From Escherichia coli (GTDB lineage: Bacteria; Pseudomonadota; Gammaproteobacteria; Enterobacterales; Enterobacteriaceae), in assembly GCF_003334785.1 (NCBI RefSeq), contig NZ_QOWV01000028.1: a stretch of DNA of 30,698 bases; one strand, written 5' to 3'. Of the stretch, positions 17,274 to 25,560 are shown piece after piece (within the stretch, counting starts at the first letter, position 1; every line of letters begins with the position of its first letter). The position numbers and the translations under genes were made by a program. Under the pieces are notes generated by a model, which was given only the letters and a program-made list of their open reading frames with translations, searched no databases and had not been told where the DNA came from.

Positions 17274-17589
17274 CCGCTGACACAGGTCTGCGGCTGGAAT
17301 TGCCTGATGCGCTACGCTTATCAGGCCTACGAGTTCAGTGCTCTACGTAGGCCGGATAAGGCGTTCACGCCGCATCCGGCATAAACTACAGCTGGCAGAC
17401 AGCCGCTGCGAAGGCATTTTTGCACATGGCGTTGGAGGAATGCGCGGTTGTTGGCGGGAATGAATCACGGTAGCCGCTGACACAGATCAGCGGCTGGAAT
17501 TGCCTGATGCGCTACGCTTATCAGGCCTACGAGTTCAGTGCTCTACGTAGGCCGGATAAGGCGTTCACGCCGCATCCGGCATAAACTAA
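17190..17589. repeat. Two tandem copies of a 200-bp unit (17190-17389 and 17390-17589), each holding the last 27 codons of cynR plus a REP pair; about 97% identical
   Basis: Direct comparison of the two stretches shows six substitutions over 200 bp; copy 1 is contiguous with cynR, copy 2 is a detached cynR 3' fragment followed by the same REP sequences. Confidence 0.9.
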
Positions 17590-17609: not shown

Positions 17610-18893
17610 TCAACGTTTGTAATCGATGGCTTCTGGCTGCTCCAGATATACGGTGGTTTGTGCCGGTTGTGTGCTGGCAATCACCTTGCCGCCACGTACC
17701 GAATAACGTACCGGAACCTGACGGCGCAGCGCATCAAACCCATTTTCAGCCGGCAGGATAATCAGGTTGGCGCTGTTTCCGGCGGCAATGCCGTAATCCT
17801 GCAAATTCAACGTCCTTGCGCTGTGGTGGGTGATTAAATTCAGGCCATCGTTAATCTGCCCGTAGCCCATCAACTGGCAAACATGCAGCCCCATATGCAG
17901 CACTTGCAGCATATTCGCCGTTCCCAGCGGATACCACGGATCGAAGACATCATCGTGACCAAAGCAGACGTTAATGCCGGACTCCAGCATCTCTTTAACG
18001 CGCGTGATGCCGCGACGTTTTGGATACGTATCGAAACGTCCTTGCAGATGAATATTGACCAGCGGGTTGGCGACAAAGTTAATACCGGACATTTTCAGCA
18101 AGCGGAACAGGCGTGAGGTATACGCCCCGTTATAGGAGTGCATTGCCGTGGTGTGGCTGGCGGTGACTCGCGCGCCCATGCCTTCATGGTGCGCCAGGGC
18201 AGCAACGGTTTCGACAAAGCGCGACTGCTCGTCATCGATCTCATCACAGTGAACGTCGATGAGACGGTCGTATTTTTGCGCCAGGGCGAAGGTTTTATGC
18301 AGCGACTCCACGCCGTATTCACGGGTAAATTCAAAATGCGGAATCGCCCCCACTACATCTGCCCCTAAGCGTAACGCCTCTTCCAGCAACGCTTCACCGT
18401 TGGGATACGACAAAATCCCTTCCTGAGGGAAGGCGACGATTTGCAGATCAATCCACGGCGCGACTTCCTGCTTCACTTCCAGCATTGCTTTCAGCGCAGT
18501 TAGCGTTGCATCCGAAACATCGACATGGGTACGCACATGCTGAATGCCGTTGGCAATCTGCCATTTCAGCGTTTGCCATGCGCGTTGTTTCACATCGTCA
18601 TGGGTTAATAACGCTTTGCGCTCGGCCCAGCGTTCAATGCCTTCAAACAGCGTGCCGGACTGATTCCAGTTCGGTTGTCCGGCGGTTTGCGTGGTGTCCA
18701 GGTGAATATGTGGCTCCACAAACGGCGGTATAACTAAACCTTGTTCGGCATCCAGGCTGTTTTCAGTTATGGGCATCACGCCGGATTGCGCATCAATGGC
18801 GCTGATTTTTCCGTCCTGCAGATGAATCTGCCACAGCCCCTCTTCGCCTGGTAACCGGGCGTTAATAATTGTTTGTAAAGCGTTATTCGACAC
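17610..18893 (-). CDS. codA: cytosine deaminase
   Basis: ORF track 432 aa from 18908; canonical 427-aa CodA begins (GTG)[38 protein letters not shown] at 18893; its start lies 11 bp inside the 3' end of codB. Confidence 0.94.
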
Positions 18894-20142
18894 TGTTAGC
18901 CTCCACATGCGTCATTGCTGCTGTCGTTTTACGATTCAAAATCGGGTTAAGGATCAGATAGCTCAGCGCGCCACCTAATACCGCGTTGACCGGAACAATT
19001 CCCGGTAACCAGTGGCCTGCAGCAATCCCCAAGGCGACCGCCAGAATCGCCACCCAATTGACACTCATCATACGCGTGGTCGCAAAGTGCTCATAGCGGC
19101 GACGGTTCATCAGATAGTCGGCGATGATCACGCCACCCACTGGAGGAATAGCTGCCGAAAGGAAGGTCAACCAGCCGACAAAATTGTTATACAGCCATAA
19201 TGCGCAGACCGTACCGATAATACCGTTGATTACCGAAAGGGTTTTGCTCGACATCCCGGTAATGTTGGCGAAACCTAAACCCGACGCATAGAGTGCGTTA
19301 TCGTTGGTGGTCCAGATATTCAGCCCCAGCACCACAATCGCAGGCAGCAGCAGGCCCTGAGCAATCATCACATCAGAGATATCCGCCATGCCCAGTGCCG
19401 CAGCGCCCGCTGCACCGAAAATAAACATCAACGAGTTGCCGAGGAAAAAGGCCACCATCGCCACCAGCACCGCCAGTTTGGCATTGCGACCAAACCGGAC
19501 AAAGTCAGCGGTGAGCGTACCCGCACTGATAAATGACCCCACAACCAGCGCCAGCGCGACATTGAAATCTAACGGTTGTGCGGGAACGACCGCTTTTAAT
19601 GCGTCCAGGCCGCCCATGCCGTTAACAGCCAGCCACACGGAATAACCGCCCAGGCAGGCGATAGCCGGAACCGCAATCACCGAAAGAACCGTCAGCGCCG
19701 AAATGCCAAAAAAGACGGTGACGGTCATCAGTAAACCGGAAACGGCAATCAGCAAATTAATATCCAGCCCGGTTGCCTTACCCACCGGAATGGCAAACAT
19801 CGCCACACCGACGCCAAACCAGCCAACCTGAGTTCCGCCCAGTAGCAGTGAAGGCAGCCATGAGCCTTTAACACCAAACGAGAAGCGAGCAAGAAGATGA
19901 GTGGTCAGGCCGGTTTTTGCGCCAATGTAACCGAGAAATGAAGTGTAAATACCGAGGAGAAGATTACCGATGAGAACTGCGAGGAAGAAATCATGATAGC
20001 TAAGACCGGTTCCGAGAGTGCCGCCGGTCCACATACTGGCGGAAAAGAAGGTTAATCCCAGCATGACGAACGTCAATGCCAATACCCCTTTCCGCGCCGA
20101 CTGCGGGACTGGCCCCTGGCTAAAGTTGTTATCTTGCGACAC
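18883..20142 (-). CDS. codB: cytosine permease (NCS1 family)
   Basis: ORF 419 aa [52 protein letters not shown]...; canonical length, polytopic membrane protein. Confidence 0.96.
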
Positions 20143-20208: not shown

Positions 20209-20224
20209 AAGCAATCGTTTTCGT
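20209..20224 (-). promoter_or_regulatory. PurR-box-like sequence upstream of codB (minus-strand reading acgaaaacgattgctt)
   Basis: About 13 of 16 positions match the PurR operator consensus ACGCAAACGTTTGCGT as I remember it, 67-82 bp upstream of the codB ATG; codBA is known to be purine-repressed. Assignment is by pattern only. Confidence 0.4.
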
Positions 20225-20292: not shown

Positions 20293-20455
20293 GGGTAGGC
20301 CTGATAAGACGCGTCAGCGTCGCATCAGGCATCTGAGCATGGTGTCGGATGCGACGCGAGCGCCTTATCCGACCTACGGTTCAGGTCCGTAGGCATGATA
20401 AAACGCGTCAGCGTCGCATCAGGCATCGGCACACAGTGCCGGATGCACCGCGCGA
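20293..20455. repeat. REP/BIME cluster between prpE (3' end) and the codBA promoter
   Basis: Repeated gtaggcctgataagacgcgtcagcgtcgcatcaggcat and gtcggatgcgacgcgagcgccttatccgacctac type palindromes read directly. Confidence 0.85.
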
Positions 20456-25084: not shown

Positions 25085-25560
25085 CGAGATTGTTGTCGGA
25101 TGCGACGCTATGCGTCTTATCCGACCTACAGTTCAGTTCACCCCGTAGGCCTGATAAGTCGCGTCAGCGGCGCATCAGGCATCGGTTGTCGGATGCGACG
25201 CTATGCGTCTTATCCGACCTACAGTTCAGTGCACCCCGTAGGCCTGATAAGTCGCGTCAGCGGCGCATCAGGCATCGGTTGTCGGATGCGACGCTATGCG
25301 TCTTATCCGACCTACAGTTCAGTGCACCCCGTAGGCCTGATAAGTCGCGTCAGCGGCGCATCAGGCATCGGTTGTCGGATGCGACGCTATGCGTCTTATC
25401 CGACCTACAGTTCAGTGCACCCCGTAGGCCTGATAAGTCACGTCAGCGGCGCATCAGGCATCGGTTGTCGGATGCGACGCCATCCGTCTTATCCGACCTA
25501 CAGTTCAGTGCACCTCGTAGGCCTGATAAGTCGCGTCAGCGACGCATCAGGCATCGGCTG
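25085..25560. repeat. BIME array: five tandem 93-bp units, each a head-to-head REP pair, between prpC and prpB
   Basis: Unit starts at 25085, 25178, 25271, 25364, 25457 (and a degenerate edge at 25550), giving a period of exactly 93 bp; units are near-identical with divergence at the array ends. The reverse-frame ORFs across it are repeat translations. Confidence 0.92.

Follow-up and report, generated by a model that had tools for sequence, protein, structure and literature searches.

The window, by which we mean the whole analysed stretch of 30,698 nt of Escherichia coli DNA (contig NZ_QOWV01000028.1), carries the gene order of a K-12-type E. coli chromosome, mhp-lacI-lacZYA-cynXST-cynR-codA-codB-prpEDCB-prpR-yahONML. 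It is collinear with the annotated K-12 derivative ER2683, save for the lacZ deltaM15 deletion of that strain, and is 100% identical to K-12-type strains over a 601-nt query covering the codB/codA junction. Both cod genes are read from the minus strand. The codB gene (18883..20142, with the same coordinates in the open reading frame list and in RefSeq) is GTG initiated and encodes a cytosine permease of 419 aa, which scores 695.5 bits over residues 1-414 against the NCBIfam equivalog NF008241 of the NCS1 family, the cut-off being 326 bits. The codA gene (17610..18893, based on RefSeq, the NF006685 profile, and the PDB alignment) encodes the cytosine/isoguanine deaminase, with 427 aa when read from a GTG. 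CodA reaches 895.6 bits with NCBIfam NF006685 (PRK09230, amidohydrolase superfamily), for which the cut-off is 483, and the HxH metal-binding motif is found in its translation. Residues 2-427 align in full with the PDB chains 1K6W and 3O7U of the E. coli enzyme, whose structure and activity are characterised (E about 1e-294), and are identical to them at every one of the 426 aligned columns. The gene names given by the initial annotation, which was made from the sequence alone, are borne out by the NCBIfam profiles and by RefSeq.

The locus is the same object as the codBA operon of E. coli K-12 (b0336 for codB, b0337 for codA; CodA UniProt accession no. P25524). The order prpE-codB-codA-cynR, the coding sequence coordinates, the length of 427 aa, and the GTG start all match RefSeq, where the PGAP annotation of the collinear K-12 derivative has codA at 17610..18893 and codB at 18883..20142. 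We find no difference from K-12-type codBA at the junction, and the window has a wild-type lacZ.

Read on the minus strand in the codB frame, the junction is ACG CAT GTG GAG GCT AAC AGT GTC GAA TAA. The codB gene ends with the TAA stop codon at 18883..18885, as seen in the sequence and in the open reading frame list, and the GTG initiation codon of codA, read as fMet, occupies 18891..18893, as supported by the sequence, the N-terminal peptides of PMC13245402, and its comparative position. Since codons start at 18893 in codA and at 18894 in codB, the two genes use different frames shifted by one nucleotide, and they share the 11 nt from 18893 to 18883 (GTGTCGAATAA), an out-of-frame overlap evident from both the sequence and the RefSeq coordinates. 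The initial annotation had described exactly this arrangement, with the codB stop codon at 18883-18885, an 11-bp out-of-frame overlap, and a GTG at 18893 opening the canonical 427-aa CodA, and the sequence, the translation, and RefSeq concur with it.

A second possible start is an ATG in the codA frame at 18906..18908. The maximal codA frame in the list runs from it (17610..18908, 432 aa) and overlaps codB by 26 bp, as had also been stated correctly. The listed frame begins at 18908 because two codons before the ATG the codA frame is closed by an in-frame TGA, read in the sequence at 18912..18914. This TGA leaves six open codons above the GTG, and the ATG is therefore the sole alternative start. 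The chance of at least one start-like codon in six codons is about one in four (1-(58/61)^6), so that an extra start-like codon upstream of the GTG is unremarkable. The ATG is spelled by the His-Val codons of codB (cATGtg).

A Shine-Dalgarno sequence, GGAGG, lies at 18900..18904 within the codB codons Val-Glu-Ala and is separated from the codA GTG by a spacer of 6 nt. [quoted passage not shown] The duplex reaches -9.3 kcal/mol, which is the strongest value in codBA and within the top 0.6% of positions. For the 20 nt upstream of the ATG the duplex energy is +0.3 kcal/mol, meaning that the ATG is without a Shine-Dalgarno sequence, and the GGAGG sits downstream of the ATG and is therefore unable to serve it. 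Together with its origin in the codB CAT-GTG codons, its distribution, and the family profile, this led us to judge the ATG non-functional as a codA start. The ATG belongs to an AUGUG motif (compare PMC9841429), but this ATG is neither annotated nor observed as an initiation site.

Could the ATG nevertheless be the main start, giving a CodA of 432 aa (MWRLTVSNN) in which the GTG encodes an internal valine? ATG is generally the preferred initiation codon, and this one opens the longest reading frame, but CodA begins at the GTG in the annotation, in the family profile, and in the crystals. In each of the seven E. coli genomes that we inspected, RefSeq/PGAP starts codA at the GTG and gives the 11-nt overlap; these genomes are of differing strain types and sources and were chosen across the 97-100% identity range of the matches. 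Positions 2-426 of the 426-position NF006685 profile cover residues 8-432 when the 432-aa translation is used, and the family model thus starts at Ser2 of the 427-aa form, with no columns covering the 5-residue extension. The PDB entry 1K6W has 426 aa with SNNALQ as its first residues, and 3O7U has 427 aa. Variation within the species does not bear on the choice: in eight E. coli strains, taken from the 97-100% range of nucleotide identity over the 601-nt junction query, the ATG, the Shine-Dalgarno sequence, the GTG, and the TAA show no change, so that intraspecies data cannot discriminate between the ATG and the GTG.

The start codon in use is established by published N-terminal peptides. For E. 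coli K-12, the TRAINSPOTTER N-terminomics data (PMC13245402 Table S1) contain two N-termini for b0337/codA. One is a 13-residue peptide bearing Met, with a pulse-SILAC H/L ratio of about 17, and is newly made, and the other is a 12-residue peptide with Met removed, with an H/L ratio of 0.03, and is pre-existing (PMC13245402). Both peptides map to NC_000913:356171-356173, the codA GTG, and are placed in the database TIS class, and this b0337 start is also backed by INRI-seq and REPARATION (PMC13245402). For b0337, the same table prints a start context of 60 nt, which is identical to the window sequence. Since Met is found at the position encoded by the GTG, initiation at the codA GTG is its only possible origin. 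An internal valine would be expected if the protein began at the ATG, but it is Met, not Val, that precedes the 12-residue peptide, in a nascent-like form, and the Met-less form is observed as well (PMC13245402). The Met-SNNALQ N-terminal peptide refutes the ATG as the main CodA start.

The only question that the initial annotation had left open, namely which of the two starts serves codA, was therefore already answered: N-terminal mass spectrometry, which it had proposed as a check, exists in these published peptides and places the CodA N-terminus at the GTG. The sign that would have spoken for the upstream ATG, an N-terminus beginning MWRLTV, does not appear, as Table S1 of PMC13245402 has no MWRL- or LTVSNN-initial peptide; this is a weak negative, because fMWR would be undetectable. 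The workflow of PMC13245402 cleaves only after Arg, and an ATG-initiated CodA would hence yield fMWR, which is too short for identification.

This blindness of the assay to a product of only three residues is one argument for dual initiation, in which CodA would mostly be made from the GTG while a minor 432-aa proteoform (MWRLTV-SNN...) would come from the ATG at 18908, which is without a Shine-Dalgarno sequence. Such an ATG, in frame and 15 nt upstream, invariant in the eight strains, is passed continuously by ribosomes translating codB. The same traffic also counts against it, as elongating ribosomes within the actively translated codB would occlude the ATG, and Table S1 of PMC13245402 lists no alternative TIS for b0337. 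The invariance is explained by the low divergence of the strains (97-100%) and by the coding of His-Val in codB. Taking into account the species distribution described below, we consider a minor product from the ATG very improbable.

For the comparison across species, one genome per species was scanned with a degenerate pattern for a 10-residue CodA motif, yielding at least 120 loci. The motif lies about 190 nt inside codA, and its choice therefore does not bias the junction. CodA and CodB were located by tblastn, and a script then called the junctions. Among the matches listed, codB and codA are adjacent in 36 Enterobacterales species of 17 named genera; Citrobacter, Proteus, and Providencia supply many of these species, so the junction counts are not independent. 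A start codon occupies the position homologous to E. coli CodA residue 1 in all 36 species among the matches listed, 27 times as ATG and 9 times as GTG, the GTG users being E. coli, a 'Hafnia paralvei' contig, five Providencia species, Morganella, and Serratia sp. Ag1. By comparison, the ATG five codons upstream occurs, among the 36 species of the matches listed, only in E. coli and in the near-identical 'Hafnia paralvei' locus; it is missing in the other 34 species, while the position of the GTG/ATG start is universal. This distribution argues against both an ATG main start and a minor one, as the upstream ATG is unconserved beyond E. coli and its closest relative.

The 'Hafnia paralvei ATCC 29927' locus (NZ_LXET01000005.1, 8320-10861) has the upstream ATG otherwise specific to E. 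coli as well as the GTG start. Identity to the E. coli proteins is 94% for CodB and 90% for CodA, far higher than for Citrobacter or Salmonella (about 82-83%), and this suggests either that the genes were transferred horizontally or that the contig is mislabelled or contaminated.

The Shine-Dalgarno sequence is part of the conserved layout. Nearly all of the 36 species among the matches listed have GGAG(G) or GAGG 6-7 nt upstream of the start, and the columns -10 to -8 (GAG) are conserved at 94%, 100%, and 100%. One of the conserved bases is the third, synonymous one of a codB Glu codon, suggesting that it is the RNA, and not CodB, that is under selection here. The frame relation of codB and codA is likewise constant in 36/36 Enterobacterales species among the matches listed. 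The overlap measures 11 nt in 28 of these species, 14 nt in 2, and 8 nt in 6, where the value of 8 nt for two Providencia loci is based on a frame-scanning heuristic, the tblastn-frame extension giving 32 and 20 nt for them. The sequence of the CodB C-terminal tail is weakly conserved between species. Outside the Enterobacterales, codB and codA overlap by 4 nt (ATGA) in Bacillales; more broadly, the Bacillales and Aeromonas junctions have 4- or 7-nt overlaps or short spacers, and some Clostridia have gaps of 150-390 nt.

Where codA stands alone in Enterobacterales, its start lies at residue 1, as ATG or often as GTG, in 17/24 cases among the matches listed. Three Yersinia species (Y. artesiana, Y. 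proxima, and Y. aleksiciae) differ from this. Their stand-alone codA genes are orthologous to and 82-83% identical with E. coli codA, but they have TTA or TCA, and no start codon, at the E. coli start position, and an ATG about five codons upstream that is preceded by GGAG(G) at a distance of 5-6 nt. No codB adjoining codA was found in the available DNA of these three species. Their CodA proteins probably carry a short N-terminal extension, judging from the reading frames, and the Shine-Dalgarno-backed upstream ATG in the three species indicates that such an extension is tolerated in the CodA family. That these Yersinia genes seem to start about five codons upstream of the homologous position speaks for an ATG-initiated E. 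coli CodA, but the E. coli ATG at the equivalent position is without a Shine-Dalgarno sequence, unlike that of Yersinia. With the peptides, the profile, and the species distribution all against it, we regard the ATG as main start as practically negligible.

We are instead nearly certain of a Shine-Dalgarno-directed GTG start with subsequent Met removal and an incidental upstream ATG, and nothing contradicts the GTG as the main codA start. In this mechanism, the GGAGG within the last codB codons directs CodA initiation at the GTG (18893..18891), which is read as formyl-methionine. The initiator Met is then cleaved off, so that mature CodA begins with Ser-Asn-Asn-Ala-Leu-Gln, and the ATG 15 nt above the GTG is an incidental outcome of the codB His-Val codons. 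In having a GTG that is read as fMet, with Met removed before the small residue Ser, codA resembles other GUG-initiated E. coli genes. Near-cognate codons make up about 9% of the annotated E. coli starts confirmed by experiment, with 50 GTG and 10 TTG among 688 (PMC13245402). The codB gene is GTG initiated too, making both cistrons of codBA GUG-initiated genes. The codB GTG lies at 20140-20142 on the minus strand and is preceded by AGGGGG, and no CodB N-terminal peptide is listed in PMC13245402.

The layout also raises the possibility of translational coupling. The codA ribosome binding site and start fall within the final 22 nt of codB, and ribosomes reaching the end of codB would terminate 8-11 nt past the codA start. 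Because of this position within the last 22 nt, codA translation is probably linked to codB translation, in addition to the independent initiation driven by the Shine-Dalgarno sequence. The link could work by keeping the ribosome binding site unfolded or by local re-initiation. Translational coupling is the general rule for co-directional gene pairs of E. coli that overlap or lie close together (PMC6728339, PMC12548453), and codBA has the layout of such pairs, being co-directional with an 11-nt overlap and a Shine-Dalgarno sequence in the codB codons Val-Glu-Ala. Coupled overlapping pairs of the ATGA or TGATG type, which work by termination-reinitiation (PMC6728339, PMC10666635, PMC12548453), share a strand and an operon as codB and codA do, and also have the downstream start and its Shine-Dalgarno sequence inside the 3' end of the upstream gene, which in codBA is conserved across genera. 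A difference is that the overlap in codBA is 11 nt and not the common 4 or 1 nt, and the coupling of codBA is putative; with an overlap of 11 nt, a terminating codB ribosome halts 8 nt past the codA start codon and not on it. We found no coupling experiment on codBA in the literature searched, and by analogy to these pairs we consider translational coupling of codA to codB plausible.

A fold that hides the ribosome binding site does not emerge as the basis of such coupling. The 70-nt fold around the codA start has an energy of -10.6 kcal/mol, where shuffled sequences average -10.61 (z = 0.00), the Shine-Dalgarno zone is about half unpaired across species (38 junctions), and no consistent masking of the ribosome binding site was seen in the RNA accessibility of these 38 junctions. 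A start hairpin that pairs GACGCAUGU with ACAGUGUC and holds the Shine-Dalgarno sequence in its loop was considered as a coupling device and rejected, its energy being equal to the shuffle mean (z = 0.00). The predicted folds thus offer no sign that RNA structure renders codA translation dependent on codB, while coupling by re-initiation is unaffected.

The strong Shine-Dalgarno sequence of codA would allow fully independent initiation. The 11-nt overlap might accordingly have no function, the variable tail of codB simply running through the codA ribosome binding site and codA initiating de novo. The absence of a significant sequestering structure and the poor conservation of the CodB tail agree with this, as does the variable length of the overlap, with 8, 11, or 14 nt in Enterobacterales and other lengths in Bacillales, Aeromonas, and Clostridia. 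On the other hand, nearly all lineages with adjacent genes, in Enterobacterales as well as in Bacillales, have kept the two overlapping or almost abutting, and the general coupling of close co-directional E. coli pairs (PMC6728339, PMC12548453) also speaks for a role of the overlap. A functionless overlap appears possible to us but somewhat doubtful.

The GTG start and the overlap are already known as the standard annotation of a well-studied operon with ordinary overlapping genes. The N-terminus of CodA has been established for decades, and proteome-wide N-terminomics has now confirmed it too. The original codBA paper, by Danielsen et al. in 1992, is said to report the GTG start and the N-terminal sequence, and Austin & Huber reportedly did the same for codA in 1993. 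The modest addition made here is comparative: the 17 named Enterobacterales genera among the matches listed share the start position, the GAG-bearing Shine-Dalgarno sequence in codB, and an overlap that measures 8, 11, or 14 nt, and the competing ATG is lineage specific, unlike the conserved position of the GTG/ATG start. Annotation and expression constructs both require the right N-terminus of CodA, and codA is widely used as a suicide and counter-selection gene with 5-fluorocytosine. In gene-therapy constructs, the codA GTG is routinely swapped for ATG. The codB/codA case shows how start calling by the longest reading frame fails at overlapping junctions.

Further observations concern the surroundings of the two genes. 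The coding strand carries ACGAAAACGATTGCTT at 20211-20222, about 70 nt before the codB GTG, and this sequence differs from the PurR-box core GMAAACGTTTKC at a single position. The window contains two PurR-box-like matches where 0.65 are expected, which alone is not significant. The codBA operon is under purine repression, and the match at 20211-20222 is consistent with it. Five matches to the Rfam family naRNA4 (RF02564) represent REP-type palindromic repeats. One lies at the left end of the window (3-80, plus strand), one between prpE and codB (20298-20374, minus strand), and three with equal scores are arranged in tandem between prpC and prpB (25148-25219, 25241-25312, and 25334-25405, minus strand).

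On the other side of codA, the cynR-cynTSX cluster occupies about 13825-17273, between codA and lacA. In E. coli 2015C-4136CT1 (NZ_CP027550.1), lacA directly follows codA and the cluster is absent, which indicates a strain-level presence/absence polymorphism. Between cynR and codA, RefSeq annotates in the collinear K-12 derivative an 84-nt pseudogene fragment (17390-17473, plus strand), a hypothetical protein with its N-terminus missing. The lacZ gene of the window (8759-11833, plus strand) is full length with 1024 aa, whereas the lacZ deltaM15 deletion of ER2683 removes 93 nt and shifts the coordinates left of lacZ by 93. Co-directional neighbours in the window show two 4-nt overlaps besides the one of 11 nt, both of the classical kind and on the minus strand, between mhpE and mhpF (1193-1196) and between mhpF and mhpD (2140-2143).
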